DNA of 51,460 nucleotides, the filler included, from Porpidia crustulata (lineage: Eukaryota), in NCBI GenBank assembly GCA_964255105.1. It is 2 parts of 2 records of this genome, joined end to end, with 100 filler letters (N's around TTAATTAATTAA, not from the genome) between each part and the next. Parts side by side here need not be neighbours in the genome. Positions count along the whole stretch, not along the records: positions 1 to 25,711 come from CAXUWE010000049.1; positions 25,812 to 51,460 come from CAXUWE010000050.1. The stretch is one strand, 5' to 3'. Shown here piece by piece: positions 1 to 34,066 of the stretch (position 1 is its first letter; every line of letters begins with the position of its first letter). Made by a program: the position numbers and the translations under genes. The notes under the pieces were generated by a model. That model saw nothing but the letters and a program-made list of their open reading frames with translations. It made no database searches and was not told where the DNA came from.

Positions 1-55
1 GGTTAGGGTTATATTGACTAATCTTAACTAGCGCGGACCGTTTGGGGGTGGGAAC
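1..55 (+). repeat. Telomere-motif hairpin element, copy A (5' arm cut off by window start)
   Basis: GGTTAGGGTTATATTGACTAATC...GGACCGTTTGGGGGTGGGAAC resembles the loop and 3' arm of copies B-D; GGTTAG can pair with CTAATC. Confidence 0.65.
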
Positions 56-310
56 AAGTAAGCGAAATCAAAGTGGTACTCAGAATAGAGTCATCAAGGC
101 GGTACTACTGCCATGGGCACCATGGCACTTGCGGTACCTATCATGACCACACTACCGCACTTGCTAGGCATCTGACCGTTGAGGGTAAGAGATAATGTGC
201 GTGAAGTAGACCATCGCGAGGATCCCCCGGGGCCTCAACGGGGTACCTCATGTGTCATGGGAGGATAGATCTCTGCAGACAAGTCTTGCCAAAATTGCTC
301 CTTTACCAAC

Positions 311-2404
311 ATGAAAATGACTGCTTACGATACCGAAGAATGGCTCGAAGATTCATCAGGGAGGACGGACTTATGGCATGAAGCGCAAGCTGGTCATGAA
401 GCAGCCGCCAGAGCTATTCTTGATTCCACAGCTAGGAGCGAAGATCTTTTGGATCTGGTTGAACCGGTCCATGGTTGGACGGCATTATTCATTGCTTGCA
501 TTAACGGGCACTTCCCGGTAGCATAAATCCTTCTCGATACAGGGGCCAAGAGCGGACTATGTGATATTTCAGGATGGACGGAGAAAGAACATGCTGTTTT
601 CAACGGTCACTTGAAGGTAGCAGATTTGCTGGCTGCACATGAAGCTGACGACCATCGAAACCCCTCTAACAGTAAAGCTCCGCCGACGCATCTGGTGCAT
701 ACCAAACGGTTATCTCAACGTCGGTCGCAAAGTTTGACGAAGAAACCATCTGATCTAGAACTTTCGAAGGTGACTCAACAATCGGATGCAAAGCGATAGC
801 AGCCAGATACTCCTTACGCTGGGTCCTTCTAATTTGAGGAGCAAAATGAAACCTATCGACTTCACGAATCAATCATTTGATCACGGGCAAAGTGTCAACC
901 ACGGGACTAGAGCTGGTATTATTATTAGATCTGAAGGTGTAAAATTCACTTCAACGTATAGCATCAAATTGCCGATACAGGAAAATATGATTAACAAACC
1001 GCTCAAATTCCACATGGAGGATAGTGATAATGTCGTCTTGGTATTTCAGCTCTTCCGCAGTAACCGTACAGGTGATGGAGGTATTCAGATCTTTGGTACG
1101 GGGATCACTCTTCTGAATTGTCTCCGCCAGGGACTTACGCCGCAGCGGGAGAGTCTTGTAAGAGATTATACTGTTCCCATTCTGGAAAACGGGGCTATGA
1201 CTTACATTGGTTCTGTAACATTCAGTATTCTGATAATTAAACCGTTCCGGCTCCAAAATCCACCTCCAAGAATGTCGCCTGGATTCTGGACGGCTGGTTC
1301 CACTCAAGTTGTGGGCCATCGAGGTTTTGGTGCAAATTCGACAGCACATACGAACCTCCAGATCGGAGAGACCACAATCCAATCATTTCTTACGGCTAGC
1401 AGTCTGGGAGCGTCCTGTGTCGAGTTTGATGTGCAATTGACAAAAGACCATGTTCCAGTCATATTCCATGACTTCCTAGTGATGGAGACTGGTGGAGATA
1501 TGCCCTTGCATACGCTGACTCTCGATCAGTTCATGCATCTAAGTCGATCACAAGCACCTAGGGGTGACCTACAGAGCTCAGCTGAAGTAAGATATCTAGA
1601 AAGGCACCTCGTCAAAGGAGGTACACGTCCAAAGCCACGTTCACACTCGGTAAATATATATGATGACTACCGAAGCCAAGACCTGGCCCAGCGAATGAGA
1701 TATACCGAGGAGGGCATGCAGAATAATATCAAGGGCAACCTCAGGGGCCACTCGGTCCAAGAGCCGCCATCGACCCTGGAACAGCTTCTCACTGAACTAC
1801 TCAAATCTATTCCCTTCAACCTCGAAATAAAGTATCCCATGCTTTGGGAAGCCGAAGACCGCGGCATGGAATTCAATGCCATGGAGCTCAACTTTTTCGT
1901 TGATACAATCCTGACGATGATCTTCCGGCTCTACGATGACCGGAATATCACCCTCTCTTCTTTCAGTCCCGAGATCTGTATCCTTCTGGCATGCAAACAG
2001 CGGACCTTCCCAATCCTGTTCATCAACAAAGCTGGCTCTGTCCCGGCAGGCGATGTTCGGGCCGGTAGCCTACAGGGAGCCACTGAATTTGCAAAAGCGT
2101 GGGATTTGGCTGGGATAGTAATACTTTCAGACCCGTTTGTGATGTGCCCGAGGCTCTCGACGTACGCCAAAGACCAGGGGCTGGTGGTAGGATCTTACGG
2201 GAACATGAATGACGAGCCGGATTGTGCGCTGGTAAGTACGACTCGAGCCTTGCTCAATAGAGTCCGTGCAACCACTAAAGAAGTTTCTAATGCATGACTT
2301 TACAGATACAAGCTGAAGCAGGTCTTGATGCTATCATGACGAACAAAGTTCGCCTAATTTCGGAAACACTCGCAAGAGCAAATTATGAGCATCAAGGAGT
2401 CTGA
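311..2404 (+). pseudogene. GDE1: GDE1-like ankyrin + glycerophosphodiester phosphodiesterase, 5'-truncated and disrupted
   Basis: Ankyrin motifs GWTALFIACINGH and GWTEKEHAVFNGH read through an in-frame TAA at 524-526; frame change near 780-800; GDPD motifs VVGHRG, EFDVQLTKD, FNLEIKYP, SSFSP; intron 2232-2305, last exon 2306-2404; no SPX domain upstream. Confidence 0.75.
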
Positions 2405-3660
2405 CTCGGCGAGTCACTGAAGCGAAAAACAAAGTACACTCATCAGACAGCTGAGAAGAGACATAGAGCCCGCACTTCCAGTTTAGAGAGCTTCATATAA
2501 GGCAAGGATAACTTAGACTTCTCCTAGACTCCCACGGCTTCAGTAAGCTTTTCGGAAGATTTTGATAACAATTATGCTTGGATGCGCATATATAGATGAG
2601 GACTAAAACTAGATCAAGAGTAGACACTTGTGAAGATAAGTTATCAGTAACTGTTTTCGCTAATCTTGACCGAAACCTTGATCACGAGCTTTGTAGATTG
2701 AGGTACCAATAGATCTATACCTATATTACAGGCCTTGCCTGTAGGAATAATACAAATGTAGATCTCGATGTAGCCCCACCCACTACACAAGAGGATGCTG
2801 GCTTCGCAGCCCAGATCGAGGACCGCTGTGTTGATAAGAAGATAGGACACATAGAGGTGACGCATTTTGTTTTTGTTTTGGGTCAGTCCCGTAATGATTC
2901 TCTTCATGGATCTTAGAGTACATCCTTCATTCACCTTAAGTTGAGTCTCTGCTCTCTACACTCGACCAGGAGACTCATAGTAGAACTTGATCAAGCAAAC
3001 GAAGGGGCCCTCCTGCGTGACCTTTGAGCTATTCTCATACTTTTATTTCCTCTACCAACGAAGTGTAAGCAGAATTCTCTACGAATGTAGTCACTTTTAA
3101 GCCGTGGACATTAATCATCGAGTACCATCAAAACAGCGGCGAACTCGAACAAGCACAAAGTAGTATGTCAGAAACACAACGATGAAAATGGCGAAACAAG
3201 TCATCGATACATAGTATCTGAGGACTATTCAGGGCAGAATATCCAAATGCAAGCAGATAGCATTATGAGATCTATAAGCTACACTGTAGTAACACAAATC
3301 CGAGCTGAAGGGGGTTCGCTAGTAGGCTTCCTGTGTCAGAAGCTGGTGCAGCCATACTGCATAAAGGGAAGCTGAAGGGCATGGTCATAAGAAGAGATTT
3401 CATTTCTGTGGTGCTTGAAACTTTTGATACAGTCTTTCTGTCGTCCCCTAGGTCATGGCTTTTTGGTCCTAACCATAGAAAAAGACAATCAAGCTGTTAA
3501 TCCAGTTCGAATACGCAAGGATTGAAAGGGAAATATATCTCCTCATCCTTTGCTTTATGTGACAATGACTGCTCTGATTTCCAGTACACTCAGGAAGCGA
3601 TAGAGAGGAGCCACTGACATCTAACCAGACCATGTAATCCATGCCAAGATGTCAATACCC

Positions 3661-3752
3661 GTTCTCACCCCTCACGGACCATTCAATCTAGGGTTAGGCT
3701 TATATCTGCTAGTCCTGGCGTGCAGTAGGGTGGTCCGATGAGGGGTGAGAGC
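3661..3752 (+). repeat. Telomere-motif hairpin element, copy B
   Basis: 3661-3684 pairs with 3728-3752 (24 bp, one A bulge, 3 G-U); inner CTAGGGTTAG/CTAGTCCTGG 10-bp stem. Confidence 0.85.
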
Positions 3753-3890
3753 AAATATAGATCTAGCTTCTTAGAGTTAGCTCGTCCACAACTACTCTGC
3801 ACTGAGTGACTGGCACTCGAATCTCCATCAGTACCTAAGCACAATCGTAGGATATCGAAACTACCTGATTTACGTATAACTTCTAAAGCC

Positions 3891-4838
3891 ATGGCTCACC
3901 AGACTGTAAACGTCCTTCTCACATCCTTTCCTGGCCTTGGCTTGCCACCTACTCTATCACATCCAGTCGTGGCTTCAACGTCCATTGCAGACCTCATTTC
4001 GCAGCTTACTATCCGCATTCCACGTCTAGAGAACCGTTTCATACTCACAACAACCTCAAACAAGGAGGTCGCTCAGACATCATCAGCATCCATTTCCTCG
4101 CTACTCTCGAGTGAGAGCGACACGTTCCTACCTCTTCGTCTTTCAGTTCCGCTATGTGGTGGCAAGGGTGGTTTCGGTTCGCAATTACGTGCCGCGGGCG
4201 GCCGCATGTCCTCCCGCCGCAAGAAGAACCAAGGCGACGCCAACAGCTCAAATAGAAACCTGGACGGGAGGCGTCTGCGAACCATCGCTGAAGCCAAAGC
4301 GCTGGCGGAATATCTAGCACTAAAGCCAGAAATGGAAAAGAAGGACAAGGAAGCTCGGCGCAAGCGGTGGGAGCAGGTTGTTGAGCTGGCGGAGAAGAGG
4401 GAAGGTGAGGTCCGGAATGGGTCGAAAGGGCGGGTAGATGGCAAGTGGGTGGAGGAAAATGAGGACGCTAGGGAGCGAGCACGAGAGGCCGTTCTAGCCG
4501 CGATGAAGTCGGGAGATCATCAGGATAATTTGAAGCACACGTCAAGCGGTAGTTCCGGCGGTGGTTCTGCTGAGTCGAGCGAAGGAAGTGAGGATGAACA
4601 TATTGAGAAATCCATCCCAGGCTTAGGCACGACAACATCAACACCCAAATCTGCGGCCGCCCCTGCACGTTCTTACTATGGCTTTGAAGATGACGATGAG
4701 TTTATGAGTAGCGAAGATAAAGAGCTATCGGACGAGGATGCTGAAGATGAGGTTCAACAGGAAAGGAATCAGGGGGAAATGGTAGCCGCACTCAAGCCAG
4801 AAATTGCAGGGAAAGGGAAAGGGAAAATCAAGGCATGA
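3891..4838 (+). CDS. SDE2: Sde2 (ubiquitin-fold N-terminus; splicing/telomeric silencing factor)
   Basis: 315 aa ORF with LCGG|KGGFGSQLRAAGGRMSS cleavage signature and NRNLDGRRLRT motif. Confidence 0.93.
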   Translation: MAHQTVNVLLTSFPGLGLPPTLSHPVVASTSIADLISQLTIRIPRLENRFILTTTSNKEVAQTSSASISSLLSSESDTFLPLRLSVPLCGGKGGFGSQLRAAGGRMSSRRKKNQGDANSSNRNLDGRRLRTIAEAKALAEYLALKPEMEKKDKEARRKRWEQVVELAEKREGEVRNGSKGRVDGKWVEENEDARERAREAVLAAMKSGDHQDNLKHTSSGSSGGGSAESSEGSEDEHIEKSIPGLGTTTSTPKSAAAPARSYYGFEDDDEFMSSEDKELSDEDAEDEVQQERNQGEMVAALKPEIAGKGKGKIKA

Positions 4839-4993
4839 TGCGTGGCAATTATTACAGTTAATTTCAGCGAAGGCGTCAAGAGGAGGTCATTGCTAGCCTG
4901 AGTAATCTAGAGGCATGAAATGCCGCGTGGTCTAACTAAATCTAAGGCCTACTGTAGGCTCTAATCATAGTGTGATGCTATCTATGAAGATGG

Positions 4994-7466
<2,473 letters not shown>

Positions 7467-9218
7467 ATTGGATTTTGTTCAGTCTCAAAATTTAGTCATC
7501 TGTAGAGGAAAGATTTGAACTGGCAGATATTCTTCGAAAAGGAAATAATCAGTCGTATTCATCGGACTCAAATAAGGGAAAGAAAATTCCAACTTATTCC
7601 AGATATACAGTTGTAATATTTTGTACTGGAGTAGAAGAGCACCGTAGGCACGTTTCTGACGTCTTAAATTGGTACCGACGCAAGACACATGAGAGGACGT
7701 TGCGGGGTGCCAATTTATGTAGCCTGGGGCCTAGCTTCTAGGTATCTACCTTAAGGTATCTCCGCATTAATATAATTCTTGTTCTGCAGTCCAGCATCTC
7801 AGGAGCAGCTCTCCTTCCCGATACGGACTGACTGTACGACAGCATGAAATATTCATGATAGCCTCATTCTTAGTTAAGCAAAACACGACGCGTTCTTTCC
7901 ATGTACTTAATGGTACACAAGAAATGGGCTATTGGAAAATAAACCAAACTGATACGCATGCTTTGGTGCTCGAAAACCGTTAATCCGGCTATCCATGAGT
8001 ATCATGCATGCGAATTCGCCATTTGTTTCAATGATTGGAATCTTCCTATCTCTACTTTCTCTTAATACTTGACTCACCTTTCTGTTACCATGATTTCCTG
8101 TTAGATATCTCGCGTCGCAACCGCGAATCCGCATATTTTCTACGTGATTCGGGCATGAAATAACTTCATGATAAGATGCATTGTCTTCATGCCAGAAGCC
8201 CACGTCTGCCATGGTTTCCATTGCACTTACTGTGTTCCGTGCAAGAATATTTTCACGTTCCCATGTACGGCTATGCTAATTGTACTCGACCAAAATAGCC
8301 ATCACGGTCAATCTTCGCCAAGACGGATTTTCTATACGTACATCAATTTAGGTCTAGCATCAAGCTTGGGCTTTCTTCACCAAAGAAATCGAGTAGTGGG
8401 ATAGTCGGTGTTGGTATCGAGGGTATTGGCATACGTTCGCTTCTCCCGACGTCTTCAATCCAGAGATATCACGGGTTAGATAGATAGGGGCTAGGACCGA
8501 CCTTTATATTCAGTCGCCAAGACGAAATGTCAATCTGGCTTTGATTTACTCTGTAATGATCCCTTTGCTGTGTCTTTTTACACGATTGCCGACTTGGTTT
8601 GGAGATCATGCGTCCCTCTCTCTTTGCTTCCTCCTTCTGTCCTTTTCTTCTCACTATCAGCGACAATCCGGTCAAAGTAATCGTAGGCACGAAGCTCAGC
8701 AAGCTCATTCACAAGCAGAAGCATCAAAAGCCTTTACTACGGAGTCTGATTTCTTTTTGAGCGATTACGTCTTGATATACAGGTACAGTAGCGGCGACAG
8801 CTTCAGCGGCACCTGCTTTAGACGGGGCCTATCGGGTTTATCTTACCCGCAAATGAGGCGGGAGGAATTGAGAGTTCAAGAGATCAACGGATCTGAGATT
8901 AAGGCGTTCGGATCACGGAATAGTGATTCCAAGCTCTGCTCGGGGAAGGGAGGAGACATCTAGGCTCGAAATAATCAACACCTGTCTGTAACACAGGAGT
9001 CCCAAGAATCTACCATAAGCGGAGCATGGAGTCAGGATTGATCTAGGCATCAAGCGTATCAATATAGTATTTTACCCTTAAACTATCTCTACCGAAGTGT
9101 AGCTCTACAATGTACTATCCTACGTTTGGCGTAATCATGATTCGTCTATGGAATGCACATGTATATCAGGTTACGCATCGTATCCATTTGGTCTTGCCAA
9201 TTGTATGCGCAAGCGGGC

Positions 9219-11437
9219 TTACTTGGATGGCGTGAAGGGACTTTGAACCGATCCATACCTATATGCGGATCTGTCAGCTAGATATCTTCATATCCACGAG
9301 CTCCTCGACAAAAGGGTCTTACCCCTGTGGACACTGCTTTCCCAAAGGCGCGCTCCCACTCCTCATGTAACAAATTTTCGCATCCGCACACGCTTGACTT
9401 GTGCAATTTGGCGTCTTTACACTCATCTTGCCCTGAAAGCCATTGAACTTCGACACCAAACTCAGATCCTTCGACATGGCCTCGGTCACCGCATGCCAAT
9501 ACTTGGCGTTCAACGGTGAAGACTTTGGCCAGCCAATGTTGTACGCATCTCTAGTCGAGTACTCGAATCGGTATGTCGGTCCGCTGGATGTACCATTGAG
9601 TCTGGGAAAGCTATTAACGTCGGAATACCAGGTATAGGCCTCGTAGATTTCGAAAGAGCCAGTGTCCACTTCATACATACGGAAGCCACTGTTGAGATTG
9701 GTGAGTGGTGTGACACTAGGACCAATCCAGCCAGGGGTAAGTGCACTGGCAGAGGTGCGAGCGGTGCCGTTATTCGAGTAATATATCATCACCTCATCTT
9801 CATGAGTGTGACCGAAGAAAATATTGGCAATGACGTGAGGCGAGTATCGATCGACAATCTGATAGAAAAGATCGGTGGGATTATCCAAAGGGTTCGAGCC
9901 GTCCCAGCCGGTCAGGACGTGGCCGATGATCCAGACTCTCTCATGGGCGTCTTCGGCGGCTTGAAGTTCTTGAATGAGGAAATGGAGCATGCCTGAGACA
10001 TCGGGGTTCGTCGTGTTGATATAATTGAGAAAGTTACTTCGGTACCAGAAGTCTGTGTTGAGCGTAATGATACGTAGACCATAATGATTCTGTACAGAGT
10101 AGGCCCCGTAGTGGGTCCTCGCTTGATTCGCAGTGGTAGCGTTGATCCAGCCATCATGCTGCCAAAGGCCTGCAACATGATCGTAATTCCAACTTTGCTG
10201 CTGACCGAGAGGTCCAGGCAGACTATGAGGCGCATCAATCGCTTCAGGATTGCTGTCGTGGTTTCCGAGGGCAGCGAATACCGGTCCACCGATGTACTCT
10301 TTCAACATACCAAATACGCTCGTCTCCGCGTATTCTATGGTAGAAGATATCTAAGCATGTACATATGAAGGGATAAAGATCATTGTAAGAGGAAACATTA
10401 CCTGTGTAGGATCGGGACAGCTGGTTCTGTGAGTCGTGTGAAACAAGGTCTCCGGTGTATATAGTCCACCCAATTTGAGACTTGTCTTTCTGTGTGCCTG
10501 TCAAAGGACCGATTGCTTGCAGAGCAGCCAGCGCCAGATAGTACGGCGTATCACACTTAAAGGAGCCATAGAGTGGTGCAGGCAGAGAAATCTGTCCAGC
10601 TCCCAAACCCAAAGCGTGCACATTCGTCCTGCAACAGAAGCTGGCGGAGCAATTGGCTTCACTGGCGGCGCTGTATCTGGGATCTATGTGGAAGTCCGAT
10701 AGATGGAGAACTTTGATACGCTTCCCGCTGGCCTTTGGCGCAGAAGCGTTGGCTGGCTTTGCCTTAGGAAAAATACCTGTCGCATTGAGAGGCAGCGTAG
10801 TAGGTAGAGGGCAAAAGGTCTTGCTTAGATCATTGCAGATATATCTGCCATCGAGCCCGCTGACGTCCGCAAAGGCTAGAACTTGAGTCCAAATCGCACC
10901 AAAGCTTCCCGCTGCATACTCGTCCACGCATGACGCATTCGAAGCGAAATGATACTTCTGACAAAGGCTGACCATTGCATCAGGAACCTTTGAAGGAGCA
11001 ACCCGAGCAGCAAGCTTTGCAACACTCAACGCAGCTAAACATTTGGAACAATTTCCACTGATCCCACTGTCTCCAATGATCGCAACAATTTCGATAACGA
11101 CACTCTGAATAATCGCCATGGCAGCGGCATCGGAGATATTTGCCACGGGCTTAGGGTAGTAAATCGGGTCATCATCAGTGGTAGGAATGGTCTTGGGGTT
11201 AGTGAGATTGAGGGGGAAAGTGATGTTGAGCACTGGATCGTACAAGGCCGGTTGGGGTTCTTGAGTCGCAAGCGGCGGTATGTAATAGGATGAAAAGGCT
11301 GAAGTAGGAAAGCCTGCGGTAGCGGTGTAGGCCAAAGGGCCTGGAATCGATTCACTTCCCTGCGATTGTACAGCAACGATGAGAGCAGAGAACGACAGCA
11401 GTCTTTCCGATACAAGTGTAAGTTGACTTGAGCGCAT
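9219..11437 (-). CDS. Secreted acid sphingomyelinase-like metallophosphoesterase with saposin-like Cys-rich N-terminus
   Basis: Motifs HLSDFHID, YTGDLVSHD, LGNHD, IIGH, FFGHTH; introns 10335-10401 and 9259-9322; probable start MRSSQL at 11437. Confidence 0.9.
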
Positions 11438-12089
11438 CGTGGGTCCAATCGTAGAAATCTGATGTAGGGGGGTGACCGCAGAAGATTGCAGGGAAAAGAG
11501 AAGCTGCTGCAGCCCAAAGAGAAGCAATGTTGCGCCATGTTACTGCAGCAGGTAGCTTCCTCTTATATAGGTAGGTACTACTGCACACAATGTCACGATA
11601 TGATTTTACTTTCTATAGGATCTTCACGGGGAGGGGTGTTAATCATTCCAGATTGACGTACGGATGAAGGACGTGTCTACTAGGAAAGTGATCTATTCGG
11701 GACCTGTATGTGAACGGCGCATATCAGCCAATCAGACCAGCACGCTGACACGCTTAGCCCAACCATCACCAAGTAGTCTTCTCATCTTTTATACTACTCC
11801 ACGATATGCTTGATTATTGTTGTCTTGGGTTGTTGAGAAAATTCTTTGAAACAGAACCAGAGGATAGTCGACGCATACTCAGAAGCACAGTGACATGGGC
11901 ATCTACCACCATTTGCTATTGCCTGCTGATTCCGCACTACATATCAAAGTTTTGGTTGCCATATCAATACGTCAAGGAACAGAAACCAAATTTATGAACA
12001 CTAAGCTATTCGTCATCCTACGCATTTATTGCGTCCGGGCGATCATCGTGAATTGGTTTTGTAATCCCACACACACACGTGGGACAACG

Positions 12090-13500
12090 TCATTTTTCCG
12101 GATTATCATTAGGGGTTTCAGCAATTCTATCGTCCAGGTCAGCACCAAAAGCAGCTTATCAGGATACAGGACTACATACCTGAAGACCAATTTCTTATTA
12201 CCGCTCTTCCGGTTCATCAGTCGTTGTAGGGCACCTTCAACACCTCGAAGTCCCTCTGGAACAACCTCGAATGGATGGCCTGTCAATCTTTTCTCATGCA
12301 ACAGTCGTCCAAACATCGCGGCCCAAATGAACCCAAAGTCCTTGGCTCCGTGCTCCTTGTCTTCGTGGACGCAGCCTACCCTGAGGACAAATATTAGCCT
12401 GAGAGAGCAAAGGCAGTAATAGAAACGTTACCATATTTGCTTGTACTCAGCAAAGGCTTCCAAATATTTCTTCTGGCCATCCAGTATTCCAGTCGTGCAT
12501 GTGTATTTAGCATCATTCTTCCCTACTGCGCTTGAAATATAAATAGCGCTTTCAATACTAGGGCTCGCGTCAAATACGTGGCGACATATTTTATCAGACA
12601 AGGCCTGACTGAGATCTCCTGAAATAGTTGGGCTTCTATAATCTAGTACCACATCATACCCCACAGATCTCGCGAAGTCCGCGGAAGCCCCGGCAATCCC
12701 GATGATGGGTGATATGGACGGGTTGAGCTTGGCCAGCTTGAGAGCGAAGGCCCCAACAGCGCTGGAGGCCCCATTAATTATCAGTGGAGTGGGCTTCGAC
12801 ACTTTATCCCACGGACAAGGTAGCTGAAGAATACGGAAGAGGCCTACGGCCGCAGTATACGCTATGTCTTTAGATCAGTGAACTATCAACAAAGATAATG
12901 AAACTGATTGAAAGGGTTCCGTTACCTGCGAGAGGTATAGTTGCGGCTTCCTCGAAGCTTAGAGATTCTGGAATAAGGAAGACAGATTGTTTCTGAACAA
13001 CCGCGACTTCTGCATAGCCACCACCTTTCGTGTTCATTTGGTGGAAAGCGGCCACCCGGTCTCCAACAGTGAAACCATTTACATTCTTGCCGACAGCATA
13101 GACAATACCAGCAATGTCATCACCTTGATTGAGCCGGCTGTTCTATGGGACGGAACGAGTATACATATTAGTGGTCTATTGACTGTTCCATATCACCCCG
13201 AGCGACTCACAAAGTAGGCTGGCCCTGGATGTTTCCAATCCTGCGATTGGGTCAGTTGTCGATACAACCAAGTATGTCAGAAAAAGGCCATGGAATTTCT
13301 GACGAGTTACTTTTGGGTTTGCACCAGCCACAACAACTTGGATTAGCAACTGATCGTCGTTGTAGGTCCTGCAAATGAATGAGATACGAAGCCTCGAGGG
13401 TCACAATCTGCAAGAAGATAGAATCTTACGGGTATGGAATATCTTCTATCTCTGCTCGGACCCACGAAGGGGGGTCAGAAGTGACAATGACATTTTTCAT
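12090..13500 (-). CDS. Medium-chain dehydrogenase/reductase, trans-enoyl reductase/TOXD-like, multi-exon
   Basis: Exons encode GANPK-DWKH, FTVGDRVAAFH, LSFEEAATIPLA, IINGASSAVG, KKLVFR; ATG at 13500, stop 12090-12092. Confidence 0.85.
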
Positions 13501-14396
13501 GGTGATGAAGATTGCGGCTCGACGAGGAAGGTTTGAGTACGAGTCAAGTGGGTAAGATGGTGGGAAACTCGCAGCTGAAAGATGAATATGGTATTCGCAT
13601 TATACGGCTTCTTATAGGACATATTCCAAGATATAAGAATGATAGGGATGCTGCTTTGTAAGACTAGGTAATAACGTAGATACCTATAGTGAAGCTGACA
13701 AATGCCGAAGCGTAAAGTGAGGTGGGCTCATCTAACGAAACGCGTTGTTGGGAATATACAAACTAAACAAAGGCCTATGAATTGAGAGGAGGAGATTTAA
13801 ATTCGAGCTTGCCCTGCGCCTGTTCACAAACATCCATTTCCCGGCGAACCTGTATATGACTGCGCGGTCTTAGAGTCAAAATGCTCTATAAACCTGATAG
13901 GTTGACATAATTCGAGTATAGAAGAAGATCGACCATTGCGTTTTCCACTTTTTGAGGTTATATCAGCAGCCTGCAGCTTTGGCAGCAGAAGCAGTAGGCG
14001 TTGATGCAGATGCGTCGTGCTGACTGTGTCGAACGATGGGTCATCATCTCATCGATACCAAATTCCCCTCAAATCTCTGTCTGGAAGTGCATCCCTTCGT
14101 GAGCGCCTCCAAAATTCATGACGAATCAATACATGCAGTAGTGGAGAAGCCACTTCATAGTTGAGAGGTAGAGATAGAAATTCGCGGTTAAAAAAACAAT
14201 TGGGACCTTAAAGCTTTTGAAATTTTGATATCTTATAATCATGACCTATTTAAATTTCAATCACGTCCTTCAAGCACTGTCGATTTTCGAGAGGACGATG
14301 ATAAGTAATTAGATAGAATTTGCATAAATTCCTGATAATAGGAGCATCATAATTGATAGGATTGCATTTTCTTCAACCACGAGCTACCTCTAGCCG

Positions 14397-14470
14397 TACT
14401 CCCAGCGGACTACTCCACATAGGGTTAGGGTTGTATCCACTAGACGGGCGTGGTCCGTTGAGGGGTGAGA
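14397..14470 (+). repeat. Telomere-motif hairpin element, copy C
   Basis: TACTCCCAGCGGACTAC (14397-14413) pairs with GTGGTCCGTTG(A)GGGGTG (14450-14467), 17 bp, 4 G-U; loop contains AGGGTTAGGGTT and CTAG. Confidence 0.85.
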
Positions 14471-14587
14471 AGGAAAATCGCGTGGTTAGTTACAGACAAT
14501 TTGTCCAAGCGAATCGCTTTTGCGTCCTTGGTCGTAAGGTGGCATCCAGCTTTCTGATAGAAAGATTACTGCGACTGCGGTAATCTA

Positions 14588-16660
14588 ATGGCCACTGCTG
14601 TCCATTTCCTGCCCAGTGCTCTCCTCAGCCCCCTGCCAATACCCGTCTTTCTATGCCCCCTGCTTAGGAAATTCCCATCGGTTTCGCTAATTCCTCGAAA
14701 ACTCAATAACCACAGCTCGAAATCGCAAAGGCGCAGGTATCAGACTGAGTCCGCCAAAGCGCAGACCCACGCGCTGCAAACCCCTCCAAATCTACTTGCT
14801 CTGCTAACATCGTGCCCGGGTTGTGGAGCTTTTACCCAGACCGTGAACCCTGAAGGGGCTGGCTATTACAATGTTACTCGGAAGTCTGTGAAAGCGTTTC
14901 TGGCTCGGAGCGAGAATGGACAACTCGGAGAAGCAGAGACTTTCAAGGAAGCAGTCGATCACGCGAATCGGGACGTACTGCAACAGCTGGGTATGCCGGA
15001 TATATCTGACGCCAAAGCTGTTGAGCAACGGCAATTGTTTCTTCACGACCGACATGTGACTGACACCCTGAGAGGATCTATGGGCTCAGAACATGTAGCG
15101 ACACCCGTATGTAATCGCTGTCATAACCTACTAAATCACCATACTGGAATTCCAATAATCCATCCGACTATAAATTCTATCCAGGATATGATCTCCGAGT
15201 CTCCATACAAGTACAATCACATATACCACGTCTTAGATGCAGCAGATTTTCCCATGTCGTTGATTCCTCAACTGCAGAAGCACCTTGAATTGACAGCGCA
15301 GAGATCCCAAAATCGTAGAGCTAAAACCCAAAGGTTCTACCATGGAAGAATGGCCGAAATGAGCTTTATCATTACGCGCGCCGACCTCTTGGCGCCGCAG
15401 AAAGAGCAAGTTGATAAATTGATGCCTTACCTCACCGAGGTTCTTCGGGATGCATTAGGACGCTCTGGGGCAGACGTCCGTCTCGGAAACGTGCGATGTG
15501 TTAGCTCCAGGAGAGGTTGGTGGACGAAACAAATCAAGGACGAGATTTGGGATCGGGGAGGAGGTGGATGGATGGTTGGAAAGGTCAACGTGGGAAAAAG
15601 CAATCTATTCGAATGCATTTTCCCAAAGGGGCGCCAGGAAGATGTAAATTTCAACGCTTTACGGCGAAATGCCACAAAGATAGTACCAATTGATCCACAA
15701 TCTGATTCACCTCAAGATCTCCACGCTACGACAGCCCCAGACCAAGCTTTCATACCTTCTCTCGGCGCCAGACCATCGCCGGACCTACTACGAGGGCCCT
15801 TGCACGAAGACTCTCTCCTCCCTCCTGCCCCAGCCGAAACCCGATATCCCGTCATGCCCATCGTCTCCTCCCTTCCCGGCACAACCGTGGCCCCGATCCG
15901 CCTCCTCTTCGGCAGCGGCAAAGGTGAATTAATCGATCTTCCTGGTCTCTCGCGCGGCAACTTGGAAGACAATGTCTTGGACGAGCGCAAACTCGATCTC
16001 GTCATGCGCCGTCGCGTGAAGCCTGAGCAATTCGTCCTTAAACCTGGCCAATCAATTTTGCTTGGTGGAGGCCTGGTGCGAATCACGCCTACGTCACAGG
16101 ATGTTACCACACTGGCATACCCCTTTGTGCCGCTGAAAGCACATGTAACATCCACGGAAAAGGCGGCAGCGATTCAGAGCCAGGAACAATCCTCCGGCAT
16201 CCCATCGCTCCTGAAACCCGGTATTGGAGCGTTCATAGCCTCCGCCGGTTCCTTTCCCCTCAAATGGGACGTCACCAAAAAGCGCGCGGGCCCGCTCACC
16301 TCCTCCTCGGCCGGCCGCCTGCATACAAAGATCCTCCCCTTCATCGTCTACTCCACCGATATCCTTATCGAAGGCTGCGGGTGGGTGGAGCTGGTAGCGC
16401 AGGTGCGGAAAAAGGATATTGAGTCACAGCTAGTGGGATACGAGGACCGAGGCCAAGGGGTTGCGCCTTTGGACGTCCCGGCAGTGGAGATCTTCACGCC
16501 TCACGGGGGACACGTTGATGCGCGGAGTCCCATGAACGGCTGGTTGTTGGGGGGGCCGAATACGGCATCAGCGGGCAAGAGGGCCGCAAGGCCGAGGAGA
16601 AGCATGAAGGGGGTGAAGAAGGCCGAGAAGATGGCAAAGCATCGTGGGCGCGGAGATTAG
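14588..16660 (+). CDS. GEP3: Mitochondrial circularly permuted GTPase Gep3/Mtg3 (YqeH family)
   Basis: 690 aa; CPGCG...CNRC zinc finger, DAADF, TRAD, GKVNVGKS, LIDLPG. Confidence 0.9.
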   Translation: MATAVHFLPSALLSPLPIPVFLCPLLRKFPSVSLIPRKLNNHSSKSQRRRYQTESAKAQTHALQTPPNLLALLTSCPGCGAFTQTVNPEGAGYYNVTRKSVKAFLARSENGQLGEAETFKEAVDHANRDVLQQLGMPDISDAKAVEQRQLFLHDRHVTDTLRGSMGSEHVATPVCNRCHNLLNHHTGIPIIHPTINSIQDMISESPYKYNHIYHVLDAADFPMSLIPQLQKHLELTAQRSQNRRAKTQRFYHGRMAEMSFIITRADLLAPQKEQVDKLMPYLTEVLRDALGRSGADVRLGNVRCVSSRRGWWTKQIKDEIWDRGGGGWMVGKVNVGKSNLFECIFPKGRQEDVNFNALRRNATKIVPIDPQSDSPQDLHATTAPDQAFIPSLGARPSPDLLRGPLHEDSLLPPAPAETRYPVMPIVSSLPGTTVAPIRLLFGSGKGELIDLPGLSRGNLEDNVLDERKLDLVMRRRVKPEQFVLKPGQSILLGGGLVRITPTSQDVTTLAYPFVPLKAHVTSTEKAAAIQSQEQSSGIPSLLKPGIGAFIASAGSFPLKWDVTKKRAGPLTSSSAGRLHTKILPFIVYSTDILIEGCGWVELVAQVRKKDIESQLVGYEDRGQGVAPLDVPAVEIFTPHGGHVDARSPMNGWLLGGPNTASAGKRAARPRRSMKGVKKAEKMAKHRGRGD

Positions 16661-17512
16661 ACTTTGGGCCACACTTCGCCGTTGGGATTAGATTAGCATT
16701 TCTGATCTGGAAAATTCGAGTCTCGGATTGAATCCACGCCAATGCTTCGAAAACTCAGGATCCACAAGTTGGGCCGCGACCGCTCCAGTCCCCCACGTGA
16801 ACCTCGAGTCTCGATGCCGAAGTTCCCCACCCAACTCTACTTGCTTGAGCTTCCAGTATGTCGCAGACGCTTCGCCCATGGAGGTAGAAAGCTAGTGGAG
16901 ACTGAATTATTTGCACGACACAAGGGACACAAGGAGATGGATCGCATGAACACCGGAACCAGTACTTCCCAAGGCCGATGTGCAACGTAGATTCATCGCC
17001 AGCGACGTAGCGCATTACTTATTATTGACAGTCGAGAAGAATTCAACGATGAGCTTTATCCCGAAGCTCAGGATGCGCTTCACGACAGGAAGGCGTGAAT
17101 AAGTACTTGGCTGCGTCTTTGGGCGCTGAGAAAGGATGCTTGTAAGGGTTTCCTTGGGTTCTATTGGAAGTGAAAAAACATGGGTGAAGTTGAACATCGA
17201 TCAGGGTATGAGTGGTAGAAAGTTTAATCAAAAGATTTGCAATTTCAATCATCGCAAACGAAAGTATTAAATCCTAGATATAATCCTAGATATGGGACAC
17301 TCTGTTTGCCAATGTATGCAAAATATGCGTACTCTAGATTGCTACGCGTACTGTGATCCAGGTACGTGGTTTGCATCCTATGATGACTGTGCGTCACTCT
17401 AATGCAATCTCACTCAGACCCACCAGGGGGCGGCTAGGGTATAAAGTATCCTTCGTAATGTCGTGAACTCATGAAGGCGTTGCGAAGGGTCGCTCAATGA
17501 CTCGAAACTCGG

Positions 17513-18364
17513 TTATTGGCTCTCATGATTGCTTGACCCCGCTCGTTCCAAGAGGCTGGGTGACACGACGTCAAGTGCGTCTTTGTGATGTCCCACCAAG
17601 ATATCGTCGTCCAGCGGCCGCCAGACCCATTCTCTGCGGCGCTTGCGCCGTCCGTGCACTGGAGTGGCAGAGCCGTCTTCTTCTTCGATGATGGCACGTC
17701 TCTCTTTTATTGCGGCCTCGGTCCTATGACCATCGCTATCCGAGTCCAATGAACCGAATATCGTCTCAGCATCATTTGTCGGTATGGTCTCTTCTAGTGG
17801 TTCGTGGAAGAGCACTCGTTTGGCAGGTGGGAACATCCTCCTCGGCGCACGGGCTGAAGTGGCCGAAACGTGCCGTCTTGGTAACGGGCTATTGCGGAGG
17901 ATGCTGCGAGCCCCCAGTGGGAGGTTGTAAGGAGTTGTGCTAGGAAAGGGCGATGTGTGGCCGGAGGCCGAGGAGCTTCCTGCTGAAGTGGATGACGGTG
18001 TGGGCTGATGGTGAAGTGGTGCTCCTTCGATTCCCCGCGAACCGGGAGAGTAATGTGAAGGTGAAGGTGAAGGTTCGAAAGCGTTGACGTGAGCGTTGCG
18101 TATTGTTGGCGAGTCTGTTGAGAAGCTTAGATTAGGGCCCGGCTTCGTCCTCTGTGCTGATGGAGGTGATGTCTGGAGAGAGAGTTTGGGCCGCTTTGCA
18201 GTTGCCACTGTCACAGGTGGCAGTACCGAGATCATCATATCTCCTTTTGGCACTTGTGACTGTAACATCGATTGTGGATCCTGCGATGTTTGTACTGTCG
18301 AAGGGGAAGTATGTGAGCAGGGTTCTTTGACCTGGTGGTGGAGGCGAGATGGCAAAATAAGCAT
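17513..18364 (-). CDS. Hypothetical Ser/Pro-rich disordered protein
   Basis: Long ORF, probable ATG at 18364; motifs KRPKLSLQT, RSILRNSPLP, KRVLF, KRRREWVWRPL. Confidence 0.65.
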   Translation of the reverse strand: MLILPSRLHHQVKEPCSHTSPSTVQTSQDPQSMLQSQVPKGDMMISVLPPVTVATAKRPKLSLQTSPPSAQRTKPGPNLSFSTDSPTIRNAHVNAFEPSPSPSHYSPGSRGIEGAPLHHQPTPSSTSAGSSSASGHTSPFPSTTPYNLPLGARSILRNSPLPRRHVSATSARAPRRMFPPAKRVLFHEPLEETIPTNDAETIFGSLDSDSDGHRTEAAIKERRAIIEEEDGSATPVHGRRKRRREWVWRPLDDDILVGHHKDALDVVSPSLLERAGSSNHESQ

Positions 18365-18831
18365 TGTGGTTGCAGTTGCCTTGTTCGCCCAGATGAGATG
18401 AGCTTGGTAGCACTTGCGGTTGTTAATGGATAATAGTAAGAATATGGCCCGGAGTTGCAAGAATAAGCCCAGACTACTCGGTCGGAGAGCAATTCGATCG
18501 CTAGGATCGGTTGGTAAGGCACGAGGGCAATTGATGAGCCGGGTGGCGGAGTTATCGAGCTACTCGTTGGGACTGTTGGGAAGACATGAGCGAACCGTGA
18601 GTTAGAATCGGATAGGCGATCGGTCAAAGACAGCCTGTGCCTTTCTCCAATTTAACATATACGATTTGTTTTGTCCGAGTTCTTAGTGTGGAGAATGGCA
18701 GATTTGTTGTAGAGGGAGTGGTTAGAAAGTCTGCGACTAGGCAGGTGTAAGACAATGACAGGTGGGATAGCGGATGGTAGAGCAGCTCGTTCTGGTAGTA
18801 GATTATGCGCACTCACAAGAGTGACAAGGTA

Positions 18832-19349
18832 CCCCAACTTTCAGGTTCCTGCCTCGCTTTTTAAATTTTCAGAATTTTTTTTTTCTTCGGATCCGAGGGT
18901 CAAAATCAGCTTTTCATGATACAGTGATCAACGCTTCGTTGAATATCGTTTCAAATGAGACAGATTGTAGATTACATGTAGTTCCATCTGTACACGCAAT
19001 CACATGAAATTCTAGCTTCATGTTGTTGATGTATAACTGATTTCATGATATGTACATCGTACAGCATGTCGCAAAATCGAAGTCTCGACTCATTTTTATA
19101 CACAGCGTGCTCACACAGCTTGACAGTCACAAGTTTTATGAAATCAGTATTACGTTAACAACACAAAGCTAGAACTGTATATAACTGCGTTCACAGATGA
19201 AACTATATGTAATCTATAATCTGTATGATTCTGAACGATATTTAATCAAGCGTTGATCACTGTATCATGAAAAGCTGATTTTAATCTCTTCGATCTAAAA
19301 AAAAAAAACTGAAAATTTAAAAAGCGAGACAGGAACCTGAAAGTTGGGG
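18832..19349. mobile_element. MITE/foldback element with about 220-bp TIRs, TA target duplication (Tc1/mariner type)
   Basis: TA|CCCCAACTTTCAGGTTCCTG...CAGGAACCTGAAAGTTGGGG|TA; arms align for over 200 bp; AT-rich; no ORF. Confidence 0.9.
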
Positions 19350-19639
19350 TACATAATTAAATGAAAAATGTATAATTAGGTCTCTGCTTAAGACTTAAAT
19401 TATATGCCACTGTGTACATACCTTGTGAGTCTGCTATGCTCATAGACTCTACGGCATGTTCGAGCTCCTTGTTATCTGCCCCGCTGTCTGCGTATCGACT
19501 TCTTGAGTGACTTGTACTCGTTATTGATGTCAGTCAGCGACTGGGTCACGTTATACGTTTCTGGGCAGATTGGCACATTGGAACCCAAGCACCACTCACG
19601 CCACCTACCAGTTCAATGGGTGTACCATACGAAACACAC

Positions 19640-19712
19640 CTCTCAATGGAACAGTAGGCACAGGGTTAGGGTTATTCCCACTAGTTTGGGCCTATTGTTC
19701 CGTTGAGGGATG
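19640..19712 (+). repeat. Telomere-motif hairpin element, copy D
   Basis: CTCTCAATGGAACAGTAGGC (19640-19659) pairs with GCCTATTGTTCCGTTGAGGG (19690-19709): 20 uninterrupted bp, 3 G-U; loop ACAGGGTTAGGGTTATTCCCACTAGTTTGG. Confidence 0.88.
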
Positions 19713-20120
19713 AATACGAGTGCTCTAAATTGATAGGCACGTAGGTCGTCGTTTTGACTTTTTCAACTATCGATCGGCAGCCCTACCGTATAAAAAGACT
19801 TGACATCAGGTCTTCTTAGAGTACTTACCTATCCACCTATCCAAAAGCGGACACCTCAAGTCACATGATCTGACTGTTCGCTTACCTTACCCGACAGATT
19901 CGAAGCAGTAGTGTGATTATCACTCATGATTGAGATAAAGTGACAACTTTTTCATGTTGTGCCTGTGCATCATTGCTTGTATCTGACCTGCTGCTGGTGC
20001 TTCCAGACCTTAAATTCCAGGCCACTCCACCTCTCGTGGTTATAGCCATCCGAGGCTACATCTTACATTGCATTATTCCAGACTTCCAGGTATGATCATG
20101 AATTTCAGCTCGGGCTCAAT

Positions 20121-25711: not shown

Positions 25712-25811
25712 NNNNNNNNNNNNNNNNNNNNNNNNNNNNNNNNNNNNNNNNNNNNTTAATTAATTAANNNNNNNNNNNNNNNNNNNNNNNNNNNNNNNNN
25801 NNNNNNNNNNN
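25712..25811. other. Artificial assembly gap/linker N44-TTAATTAATTAA-N44
   Basis: Palindromic six-frame-stop sequence at 25756-25767 centred in 100 positions. Confidence 0.95.
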
Positions 25812-25900: not shown

Positions 25901-25921
25901 ACATACACATACACATACACA
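25901..25921. repeat. Short (ACATAC)n microsatellite
   Basis: ACATACACATACACATACACA. Confidence 0.6.
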
Positions 25922-26375
25922 ATCATTAACGCGGAATTTTTTTCTCACATCCGCGCGCTCTTCGAAGATTTCTAACCTCTAGAGTATCGCAATGCTATCT
26001 ACCTACTTTGGGAAAGCATCGCCGACCGCCTTGCTATATAATGCATGTTTTATAAAAATGGAGAGAGGCACTGGCCGGCATTGATTTCCATGGGCAACCC
26101 AACCGCGGATGTAAATAATGCACTTCGAGTATGTACGCCACTACGCGAATAAACACTCGGAAGAGCGAAAGCAGATACTGGTTTGATCAGAAGAGACTCC
26201 TAGGCTAATGCAATCAATGGAGTGTTGTTGTCGGGAGCCCAAAGAAACGCCTCTGCGATGGGAGCCAGAGCGTGCGCCGGAAGTGCATGATGATGCTGAA
26301 TAACAGTAACGGGCCGTGAAGGGTAGAGAAGAAAGCCGGAGGCAAACCATGAGCGCCAGCTAAATTCTATACAAG

Positions 26376-32300: not shown

Positions 32301-33172
32301 GAGTCTCGCACGGCAAAATCAAAGTCTTCTTTCGAGAGATGCTTTCGGTACTTGGACCAAGTGTGCAAAGCCCAGATACATCGCGAATTGTTTTGATCGA
32401 AGAGAAATCTCGTAGCTGCCGGTACATAATGTGCCACTGCAAGTCGCTTATTTGTTTGAACTAGTGCCAATGGTTCTTGCAGGTGTTGCTCGACAAGATC
32501 ATCACATACAAGGAATGCCTGGCATGTGAGGGCTTCGAATAAGGAGAGCTGATCAGATAGATGAAGGACATCTCTGCCTCGGCGGCGGATCTCTGTAGCT
32601 TTCAGCGTCTGGGTTGCACTTTCAAGCCCTCGTTTGATTCTCTGTATATCCTCATCGTCGATAATTTTGAAAAAGGCAGAAACGTCTTCCTCATCGTAAT
32701 CACTACACTGATCAGCATCTGTCAGATGGTTCCTGGATACATCCTTCGCGGGCTCTAGGACAGACTCACTGCCTCATGCGTTCGATTTTCTGATGCTTGG
32801 ACTTGTAGTAAGACACTATGCACGTATCGCACTTTCCCAACTGCAATTTAATTTGTTCTCTCAGATACTCCTGATGTGGAAGGACATCTTCACCATCGTA
32901 GGCGAATAGTTTCAAGCATTCAAATGCGAGATCAAGACGATGCCCTATAGAAGATGGGATCGAATCTTCGATTTTAATACGGGCTTGTTCCTCCTCCAAC
33001 AAATCTTGCCTAGCTGGGATTTTGGCATCTTCCAAAGAACAGAACCAATGAAGCTCAGGAGGAAGATCTTTGAGCTCACTTTTGTAGGAGACTACCATCA
33101 GCATACACCGTCTTTGAGGGCATTTCTACGGAATTCGAGTGCTCACTGAAGCTTGGATAATATTTCCGCCAT
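26376..33172 (-). CDS. SEN1: Sen1/senataxin RNA-DNA helicase
   Basis: Sen1 N-terminal region (LHWFC), IQG-PPGSGKT, CAPSNAAVDE, IIDEAAQ, VGDPKQLPPT, QYRMHP, TTDAFQGRE, RRMNVGITRAK; ATG at 33172. Confidence 0.95.
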
Positions 33173-33730
33173 AGCCGCCACCTGCAGTCACCTTTGCAAT
33201 TCTTTATTTTAATGTGATCTTTCCTAGAAGAACAGTCTACCGAGCATTGCACCTCTAATACCGTTATATCTCATCTCTCAACTCTTCACCGACGCCTACT
33301 TGATGAAGGGAACATCTCTACGACAGAGAAATATGTAGGGCGTATAGTACTACACTGTTGGCTGGCAAGTGACGAAGCAAGTGACAAATCTACAACAGCA
33401 GCTATCGAAATAACTCTGTGTCATACCAAAGCTCTTCGACAAGGTGAAGTGTATATAGCCTTTTAATGTCTTGGCAGAGAAGGTATGTGGTCATGATACC
33501 TTGCTTAAGTGACGGAAGTGACGCGAACGGTAACCGAGACGCGAAACAAGGATGTGACACCCAACTAGTGAACGTGGTGAAAAATACAAGTGGAATGGAG
33601 AGCCTAATAACCAAAGAGCATGAGTGTTGTACCGTAGATGGGAAGTAGTATCGTGCACCTTCAGGTAGGTAGGTAGGTACTGTAAAAGAATGCTACCTCA
33701 TTCGGATTCCTAAAGTACCGGGTACCTACC

Positions 33731-33958
33731 CACGCGGGTTAAGAAAAAAATGAGACTGAGCAATAAGCGTCTTCAGTGAAAATCTTATTAAATTTGTCGA
33801 CGAATTTCACAAATATATGACTATATCACGATTTCACAGCGTTATGAACGATAAACTATTAAAATCATTAATTTTCGATTAATTTATAAAGATTCGCTGA
33901 CAGATTTCGTGAGATTTCTCGCTGCTTGCTCAGTCTCGTTTTTTTCTTCACCCGCGTG
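33731..33958. mobile_element. 228-bp MITE with 33-bp TIRs (CAC...GTG) and 5-bp TSD CTACC
   Basis: CTACC|CACGCGGGTTAAGAAAAAAATGAGACTGAGCAA...TTGCTCAGTCTCGTTTTTTTCTTCACCCGCGTG|CTACC; 2 mismatches between TIRs; AT-rich core. Confidence 0.9.
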
Positions 33959-34007
33959 CTACCTTAAGGTAGCGTGTAAGTCTTTATTCTACTACGTAGT
34001 AGTCATA

Positions 34008-34066
34008 CTCTCAATCAAACATCCAAGGTTTTAGCCCTAACCCTAAGTTCGATGTTCGATTAAGGG
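34008..34066 (-). repeat. Telomere-motif hairpin element, copy E (divergent, minus strand)
   Basis: Minus strand CTTAATCGAACATC / GATGTTTGATTGAG 14-bp stem with 2 G-U, enclosing TTAGGGTTAGGGCTAAAACCTTG (inner TAGGGTT/AACCTTG). Confidence 0.7.

Follow-up and report, generated by a model that had tools for sequence, protein, structure and literature searches.

The hairpins dispersed through the window, by which we mean the whole 51,460-nucleotide stretch of DNA that was analyzed, are quite probably MITEs, i.e., non-autonomous cut-and-paste TIR DNA transposons with a size of 72–102 bp. We favor this reading because the elements have TIRs of ~28–30 nt, carry TA at their ends, contain no ORF, occur as dozens of near-identical copies, and share the window with two further MITE families. 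The unusual trait of this MITE is a pair of telomere-type TTAGGG repeats in the middle of the element.

Architecture, boundaries, and copy number of the element

The family is represented in the window by four complete copies of a palindromic element of 72–102 bp, one copy that is cut by the window start, and one relic of a 3′ arm. All five loci of the original prediction are present with slightly wider bounds (1–60, 3656–3757, 14391–14477, 19628–19716, and 34006–34077 on the minus strand). The window consists of two contigs joined by a linker (N44-TTAATTAATTAA-N44, 25712–25811), and the copy at 34006–34077 therefore does not necessarily lie 34 kb from the copy at 1–60. The features are as follows.

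1–60, + strand: copy c1, incomplete because the window begins inside it; GGTTAGGGTT at 1–10, CTAG at 28–31, 3′ arm at ~33–58, TA at 59–60
164–194, + strand: relic of a 3′ half; CTAG at 164–167, 3′ arm at 172–192, TA at 193–194
3656–3757, + strand: full copy (c3661); left TA, 5′ arm, AGGGTTAGG at 3690–3698, CTAG at 3709–3712, 3′ arm at 3731–3755, TA at 3756–3757
14391–14477, + strand: full copy (c14397); TA at 14391–14392, decayed 5′ arm, AGGGTTAGGGTT at 14421–14432, CTAG at 14440–14443, consensus 3′ arm
19628–19716, + strand: full copy (c19640); stem of 23 bp, TA on either side, AGGGTTAGGGTT at 19662–19673, CTAG at 19681–19684
34006–34077, − strand: full copy (c34008), the most decayed, from the second of the two contigs; stem of 16 bp, TA on either side, TTAGGGTTAGGG, without CTAG

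Each copy is built from two inverted terminal repeats of ~28–30 nt that flank a short asymmetric core, which consists of AGGGTTAGGGTT, a few bases, and CTAG. The relic at 164–194 has a 3′ arm that is 80% identical to that of c1 and lacks the upstream TTAGGG tract. The coding capacity of the element is nil since 72–102 bp is too short for an ORF, and all copies lie between ORFs with Pfam matches. Neither a transposase domain nor an autonomous partner was found among the 17 long ORFs scanned in the window. Two other MITEs are present, at 18830–19351 (TA-flanked) and at 33731–33958 (with a CTACC duplication).

The original proposal of a multicopy element that is dispersed and carries a conserved telomere-type tract is borne out by the loop sequence AGGGTTAGG, which has four matches in the window as compared to 0.23 expected and reached at least four in 0 of 100 shuffles. 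Likewise, a 20-nt stretch of the 3′ arm (≤3 mismatches) matches the window twice with 0.00 expected, and its 10-nt core (≤1 mismatch) matches seven times, four of them within elements. A covariance model, R1, was built from the four full copies, which consequently match it by construction (E 2e-22 to 1.5e-15). R1 produced 16 matches in the window in total, which include weaker matches to the same four loci on the opposite strand and the truncated copy (1–27, E 0.59); the seven remaining matches, with E of 0.32–9.7, were taken as noise.

The original prediction saw no shared TSD, and this point has to be corrected. TA borders four of four left ends and five of six right ends, at a TA dinucleotide frequency of 0.051 in the window, and the TIRs align in register when read inward from the TA slot. 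The arrangement of TA followed by 10 nt and CCCC(T/C) is found at both ends of c3661 and at the 3′ ends of c1 and c14397, the latter having AA on the plus strand (TT read inward) in the expected TA slot. In c19640 and c34008, the distance between the right-hand TA and the conserved core is 4 and 0 nt, respectively, as compared to 10 nt elsewhere, which indicates that either these ends are shortened or the TA is coincidental. The base preceding TA matches on both sides in all three complete pairs (ATA/ATA, ATA/ATA, and GTA/GTA), which could point to a 3-bp target as in PIF/Harbinger. Judged from these flanks, TA may be duplicated upon insertion; alternatively, TA could be the final two bases of the repeat.

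To count copies, we used the contigs of one sequencing run (X1), which is probably the source of the window itself; of c1, only the right half (60 nt) enters the count. In this run, 71 records align on 1–18800, with likenesses of 99% and above, 95–99%, 90–95%, and below 90% in 8, 41, 10, and 12 records, respectively. The summed depth in bin 1–627 is 74.5 as compared to a baseline of 11.4, which is what ~58 further contigs of single-copy depth would add across the 60 nt of c1. By these right 60 nt, the c1-type subfamily occupies roughly 50–60 near-identical loci and has thus amplified recently. The boundaries can be read from the same contigs: five records reach position 60 and diverge directly after the TA at 59–60 (agreement 0.48), and one other contig aligns over 3656–3752 with the alignment starting exactly at the TA at 3656. 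About four other contigs align over 14418–14471 of c14397. Two other copies have ACCCGTCAAAACCCCCAAACGG as their 5′ flank, with identical CCCGT start and spacing, and the arm variant in ACCCGTCAAAACCCCCAAACGG is the exact complement of CCGTTTGGGGG in c1. In runs X2 and X3, from other organisms of the same study, the alignment is confined to short coding pieces with 80% likeness.

Based on these features, our working model is that a transposase encoded elsewhere in the genome would bind both repeats and excise the element, which would then insert at a TA dinucleotide and duplicate it, following the Tc1/mariner ("Stowaway-like") pattern; a 3-bp RTA is the alternative target. The hairpin potential would simply follow from the inverted repeats. 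The remaining copies of the window are older than the c1 type and are decaying, mostly through transitions, and the conserved internal double telomere-type repeat is a putative protein-binding site that either the host or the transposition machinery may keep.

Self-pairing, arm variation, and alternative mechanisms

The original prediction held that each complete copy pairs with itself. Arms of 16–26 bp do pair inside each full copy, and when folded as DNA, self-pairing is confirmed for three copies (z −4.07, −4.96, and −2.24), whereas it fails for the copy at 14391–14477 (z +0.49) or for the truncated copy (z +1.22). The proposed "second inner stem" of the TTAGGG tract is weak, with RNAalifold predicting four pairs, none of which changed on both sides. 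The arms do differ between copies while still pairing, as had been noticed, but selection on base pairs is not the reading that the differences fit. On comparison of the arm sequences, the apparent "compensation" is a matter of subfamilies whose two ends share a variant, rather than of per-copy base-pair selection, because arm identity within copies (75–76%) is not above that between copies (up to 89%) and 17 of the 24 arm mismatches are transitions. For the same reason of identity, concerted evolution of the arms within copies was considered and rejected.

A structured ncRNA or 5′-leader hairpin that shares a transcript with the gene behind it and is under selection for base pairing is very unlikely to be the correct description, even though several observations would suit it. 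The four full copies folded as RNA gave z of −6.26, −3.21, −7.02, and −3.77 for the sense strand and −4.85, +0.07, −5.02, and −2.60 for the antisense strand. The G-rich (sense) strand folds well and better than the other strand in all four copies, which is not predicted by a pure DNA-transposon reading. In addition, 4 of the 18 pairs predicted by RNAalifold changed on both sides, and the copies are co-oriented with downstream genes. Against this, folding is a property of any inverted repeat, the identities and transitions given above indicate decay and not maintenance, and dozens of copies at 95–99% with sharp TA ends fit transposition. The RNAalifold result also suggested a wobble strand asymmetry as a sign of RNA selection; this was dismissed, since a hand count over whole arms of the sense strand gave ~10 G-T wobbles versus 6 C-A mismatches, which is not significant. 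Rfam returned no match in the window at gathering score, consistent with the expectation that the element belongs to no named RNA family, and the three matches at E up to 10 are all away from the elements; ARAGORN found no tRNA in the window.

The proposal of a non-autonomous single-strand HUH/Helitron-type element is more improbable still. It draws on the co-occurrence of a hairpin and CTAG in four of five copies, which would be end signals and are features shared with Helitrons. As laid out in passages of PMC4522978, however, Helitrons are defined by 5′-TC, 3′-CTRR, and a hairpin just ahead of the 3′ end. The elements described here differ in both respects: they end in symmetric inverted repeats, starting with CCCG, GCCG, or CGAA and finishing with GCAAA, ATGAA, or GAGAG, and CTAG sits within the loop, between the arms, and not 10–12 nt past a 3′ hairpin at the element end. 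Furthermore, the boundaries set by other copies fall at TA. Altogether, none of the mechanisms put forward originally (ncRNA or leader, HUH/Helitron, telomere or docking site) is the best fit; the TIR MITE architecture, which the prediction had itself foreseen as grounds for its refutation, fits better.

The telomere-type motif and its gene context

The sequence AGGGTTAGG is invariant in four of four full copies and GGTTAGG is present in five of five, as compared to a mean column identity of 65% for the element. The telomere-type motif is the best-conserved block, which at n = 5 is a hint. As a baseline for arm decay, 15 arm-core differences were counted by eye over 4 × 17 positions, or ~11% per site; by our own estimate, 0 changes over 36 motif sites then has p ~0.015, and 2 changes over 48 sites has p ~0.1. 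The gene context offers a second hint, again at n = 5, in that all five copies are located upstream of, and co-oriented with, the next downstream gene. The inferred ATG of a Sde2-like gene (3891) follows the end of c3661 by 133 nt, and that of the next plus-strand gene (14588) follows the end of c14397 by 110 nt. Downstream of c19640 is a Y-family polymerase-like gene, with its inferred ATG (20121) at a distance of ~400 nt, and the inferred ATG of SEN1 (33104) is ~900 nt downstream of c34008.

These observations could be taken to suggest a portable promoter or insulator module, in which the double TTAGGG is a candidate dock for a host Myb-type protein (Tay1/Teb1 or Tbf1 type) that sets downstream chromatin or transcription; such a module may also be a MITE. 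Precedents exist: passages of PMC7952879 describe fungal Tay1 proteins with high-specificity TTAGGG binding, a fission-yeast homologue that is a transcription factor, and budding-yeast Tbf1 working at snoRNA promoters, and PMC4551913 describes Tbf1 as an enhancer-blocking insulator too. The conservation of the motif and the position of two copies within 110 and 133 nt of an inferred ATG are in line with this idea. Nonetheless, we consider it doubtful, as the co-orientation of five of five copies reaches only p ~0.03 (one-sided), the ATG is 400 and 900 nt away in two cases, no common function links the genes downstream, and the conservation test is post hoc and estimated by eye. A broader version seems similarly doubtful to us, namely that the MITE retains the two-repeat motif as a putative load site for a Myb-type TTAGGG binder, either a host Tay1/Tbf1 homologue or transposon-encoded, and thereby spreads ready-made, orientation-dependent promoter or insulator (nucleosome-free) modules ahead of genes and scatters dozens of interstitial telomere seeds in gene-rich DNA.

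Fungal genomes normally contain MITEs, so that the element is ordinary in kind and changes little. It should be masked or annotated to keep it from being read as a regulatory hairpin or an RNA gene. The interest for follow-up lies in a conserved double TTAGGG within a recently amplified element ahead of genes. If a telomere-repeat-binding protein uses the motif, the family would offer a clear example from fungi of a transposon that brings one transcription-factor or insulator site to many promoters, and it would in addition supply interstitial telomere repeats.

Comparison with known systems

Among the published descriptions and sequence strings that were searched, no named MITE family matches the element. 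In the literature, the arm and core strings occur only in unrelated primer-type papers, judged by title, and no fungal MITE with an internal double TTAGGG was among the matches listed. A degenerate core-plus-3′-arm pattern hit five loci in a metagenome scan, all of which lack both the CTAG layout and a 5′ arm of complementary sequence, and two loci in prokaryote genome contigs (a Stenotrophomonas contig and a Pirellula MAG); both sets were taken as chance.

Plant Stowaway MITEs are short, target TA, have TIRs that can form hairpins, and prefer genic regions, and the element is similar to them in these traits, with TA as its likely target. They differ in kingdom and in TIR sequence, and Stowaway elements are not known for carrying a telomere-type motif internally. 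PIF/Harbinger (Tourist-like) MITEs usually target TWA, and Harbinger elements carry a gene for a Myb-like protein that recognizes subterminal DNA sites. In such a system, an internal Myb-type motif would function in transposition. A 3-bp duplication would suit the ATA/ATA, ATA/ATA, and GTA/GTA flanks; however, assuming such a duplication, the two TIRs slip one base out of register, and the target here would be RTA instead of TWA. For Epichloe EFT-8m, a passage of PMC3227409 gives the target as TWY.

The element is also similar to telo-box and Tbf1/Tay1 promoter sites, where Myb-type proteins bind to short stretches of interstitial telomere repeat directly ahead of genes (PMC7952879 and PMC4551913). 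Those sites are single promoter motifs that are not inside a TIR element, and binding is only putative here.

Fungal Tc1/mariner-type MITEs include Guest of Neurospora crassa (98 bp), mimp of Fusarium oxysporum, and EFT-29m and its relatives of Epichloe festucae. Compared by description, with Guest and mimp as cited in passages of PMC3227409, they are like the element in their size of ~80–135 bp and in TIRs of 25–30 bp that form most of the element. The same passages describe Epichloe MITEs of 83–135 bp with TIRs of 25–29 bp and a 2-bp TSD (TA in the 83-bp EFT-29m, AT in the 135-bp EFT-3mA) that are enriched 5′ of ORFs. In Mycosphaerella graminicola, passages of PMC4522978 report TA TSDs in 8 of 13 MITE families and MITEs in gene-rich regions; TTAGGG in those passages concerns a subtelomeric non-LTR element and not a MITE. 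Guest, mimp, and EFT-29m further share with the element, again as described in passages of PMC3227409, TA ends, nil coding, tens to about a hundred often degenerate copies, and proximity to genes, 5′ of ORFs.

Copies, ends and dispersal of the hairpin element

The five loci of the original prediction are present, with their ends now redrawn, and every copy of the hairpin element (inverted-repeat arms around a TTAGGG-bearing loop) is intergenic.

Hairpin copies, named by their originally predicted starts, and two other MITEs in the window. Distances run to the next downstream ATG, as inferred from ORF translations.
1-60, + strand: c1, partial copy cut by the window start; about 250 nt to a GDE1-like gene
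164-194, same orientation as c1: relic, a 3' arm of the element
3656-3757, + strand: c3661, full copy; 133 nt to an Sde2-like gene
14391-14477, + strand: c14397, full copy; 110 nt to a GTPase-like gene (weak Pfam match)
18830-19351: foldback MITE of about 520 bp; TA at both ends, TIR beginning CCCCAACTTTCAGG
19628-19716, + strand: c19640, full copy; about 400 nt to a Y-family polymerase-like gene
33731-33958: 228-bp MITE; 39-nt TIRs, 90% complementary
34006-34077, - strand: c34008, full copy on the second contig; about 900 nt to SEN1

A full copy opens with TA and a C-rich 5' arm; AGGGTTAGG(G/C)(T/C)T follows, then CTAG after a short spacer, and, beyond a second spacer, a G-rich 3' arm near TGGTCCGTTGAGGGGTGAGA that leads into the closing TA. 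CTAG is absent from the minus-strand copy c34008. The left part of c1 falls outside the window, and c1 and the relic are co-oriented ~100 bp apart, an arrangement (1-240) that suggests nested or tandem insertions.

With ends read inward and left ends aligned to reverse-complemented right ends, the two share about 28-30 nt. The best-kept ends, namely the left and right ends of c3661 and the right-hand one of c1, read TA, 10 nt, then CCCC(T/C); on its right, c14397 keeps the 10-nt spacing but has AA (+ strand) in the TA slot. TA was found at 4/4 left and 5/6 right ends, its frequency in the window being 0.051. Because the right-hand TA lies nearer the core in c19640 (4 nt) and c34008 (0 nt), either these right ends are shortened or the TA there is coincidental. 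The base preceding TA is identical on both sides in all three complete pairs (ATA, ATA, GTA), and thus a 3-bp target duplication instead of TA is possible.

AGGGTTAGG was found at 4 places in the window where chance predicts 0.23 (0 of 100 shuffles get to 4), and the 20-nt 3' arm, at up to 3 mismatches, matches twice against 0.00 expected. A covariance model was trained on the four full copies, whose own matches (E 2e-22 to 1.5e-15) are therefore by construction; at a cut-off of E up to 10 it returned 16 matches in total. These include weaker opposite-strand matches at the same four loci and truncated c1 at E 0.59. The remaining 7 (E 0.32-9.7) were set aside as noise, which leaves no additional good copy in the window. 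A degenerate stretch resembling the loop and 3' arm of the c1 type (TAGGGTTATGG…CTAGCTAGCGGATCG) was spotted by eye at 34196-34250 (+), ~120 bp from c34008 and opposite to it in orientation; it is not among the covariance-model matches.

Contigs from the public sequencing run X1 were also compared with the window; X1 contains 0.99 of the sampled words of the window and is probably its own source, and so does not count as independent support. Alignment to 1-18800 at >=80% likeness gave 71 records, about seven of which tile the locus, with 8, 41, 10 and 12 records at 99% and above, 95-99%, 90-95% and under 90% likeness. Summed depth in bin 1-627 was 74.5 against a baseline of 11.4, an excess of about 58 extra single-copy-depth contigs over the 60 nt of c1. 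Five records align up to 60, just beyond the TA at 59-60, but lose similarity from there on (agreement 0.48), and one other contig covers 3656-3752, starting exactly at TA with an unrelated flank. About four contigs cover 14418-14471; two read ACCCGTCAAAACCCCCAAACGG ahead of 14418, sharing the CCCGT start and the 10-nt spacing, and carry an arm variant, CCCCCAAACGG, exactly complementary to the c1 3' arm CCGTTTGGGGG. The family is therefore dispersed in the genome with sharp ends at TA, and one subfamily is recent and numerous. Outside this genome, a degenerate core plus 3' arm pattern matched 5 metagenome and 2 bacterial loci, which we treated as chance; a matching 5' arm was absent from all 5 metagenome loci.

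Folding and arm variation

Fold z-scores (DNA; RNA of the G-rich strand; RNA of the other strand). RNA folds cover the four full copies.
c3661: -4.07; -6.26; -4.85
c14397: +0.49; -3.21; +0.07
c19640: -4.96; -7.02; -5.02
c34008: -2.24; -3.77; -2.60
c1 (truncated): +1.22 (DNA)

The proposal that each complete copy pairs with itself is borne out by DNA folds against shuffles for c3661, c19640 and c34008, but not for c14397. The G-rich strand folds better as RNA than the other strand in all four full copies. RNAalifold predicted 18 pairs, 4 of them changed on both sides; the second inner stem proposed at the TTAGGG tract was recovered, but as only 4 weak pairs, 0 of which changed on both sides.

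Both arms carry GGAACA/TGTTCC in c19640 and c34008 and GGACCA/TGGTCC in c3661 and c14397, and c34008 has two further changes on both sides. Per-copy maintenance of base pairs was considered and rejected, since within-copy arm identity (75-76% over 30 nt) does not exceed between-copy identity, which reaches 89%, and 17/24 within-copy mismatches are transitions. On the same grounds, the pattern is read as subfamilies that group c3661 and c14397, c19640 and c34008, and c1 and the relic; the two ends of each founder would have matched, with decay following insertion. A hand count on the sense strand gave about 10 G-T wobbles against about 6 C-A mismatches, not a significant difference.

Gene neighborhood and the telomere-type core

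The window is gene-dense, with fungal-type genes by Pfam (GET2, yeast-type Sde2, SEN1, a phospholipid flippase and a GDE1-type glycerophosphodiesterase). Positions 25712-25811 are an N44-TTAATTAATTAA-N44 linker, a six-frame-stop spacer of the contig-joining kind, and thus the two contigs are not necessarily neighbors. The GDE1-like gene has an in-frame TAA at 523-525, in an ankyrin repeat that is well formed apart from this stop (…INGHFPVA*ILLDTGA…). Candidate explanations are a nonsense allele, a pseudogene and an unusual gene model; the X1 contig across 523-525 differs from the window at no letter. The foldback MITE, with arms of at least 145 nt that are 83% complementary, lies about 280 bp upstream of c19640. 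The 228-bp MITE lies 47 bp from c34008 and is flanked by CTACC, a 5-bp direct repeat at 33726-33730 and 33959-33963 that is a clear target-site duplication.

At a mean column identity of 65%, AGGGTTAGG is unchanged in 4/4 full copies and GGTTAGG in 5/5. Assuming about 11% decay per site, a rate estimated from arm-core differences counted by eye, the chance of seeing all 36 motif sites unchanged is about 0.015. The motif block was chosen after the fact, and 2 of 48 sites have changed in the wider 12-nt telomere-type tract. This gives only a hint that the core decays more slowly than the arms. The core could serve as a docking site for TTAGGG-binding proteins of the Tay1/Tbf1 kind, although it is telomere-type by its TTAGGG and may not be the host's own repeat. 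PMC7952879 reports specific binding of TTAGGG by fungal Tay1 proteins, describes their fission-yeast member as a transcription factor and places budding-yeast Tbf1 at promoters; PMC4551913 describes Tbf1 as an insulator. Together with the invariant core and the orientation of 5/5 copies with the downstream gene (p about 0.03, one-sided), these activities make docking worth stating, but we consider it unlikely.

Identity of the element

The best explanation, and one we hold to be quite probable, is a TA-flanked MITE family that had not been named before, based on the combination of TIRs, TA flanks, tiny size, lack of an ORF, dozens of near-identical copies and position before genes. An HUH/Helitron-type element, as originally suggested, was rejected because the ends are symmetric, CTAG sits inside the loop rather than at a terminus, and neither 5'-TC nor 3'-CTRR after a hairpin was found. 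No copy had an Rfam match, whether at gathering score or at E up to 10, and a tRNA search of the window gave none. In a limited literature search, in which absence is not proof, the arm and core strings were not found, and none of the matches listed described a fungal MITE carrying telomere repeats internally. The element is ordinary in kind, and its conserved telomere-type core is the unusual feature that deserves genome-wide attention.

The same picture emerges for MITEs of two other ascomycetes. In Epichloe festucae, which has 13 MITE families, MITEs are enriched 5' of ORFs; one family averages 83 bp in length, with a TA TSD and a 25-bp TIR, and another measures 135 bp, with an AT TSD and a 29-bp TIR (PMC3227409). 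In Mycosphaerella graminicola, 8/13 MITE families have a TA TSD, and MITEs lie in gene-rich regions (PMC4522978).
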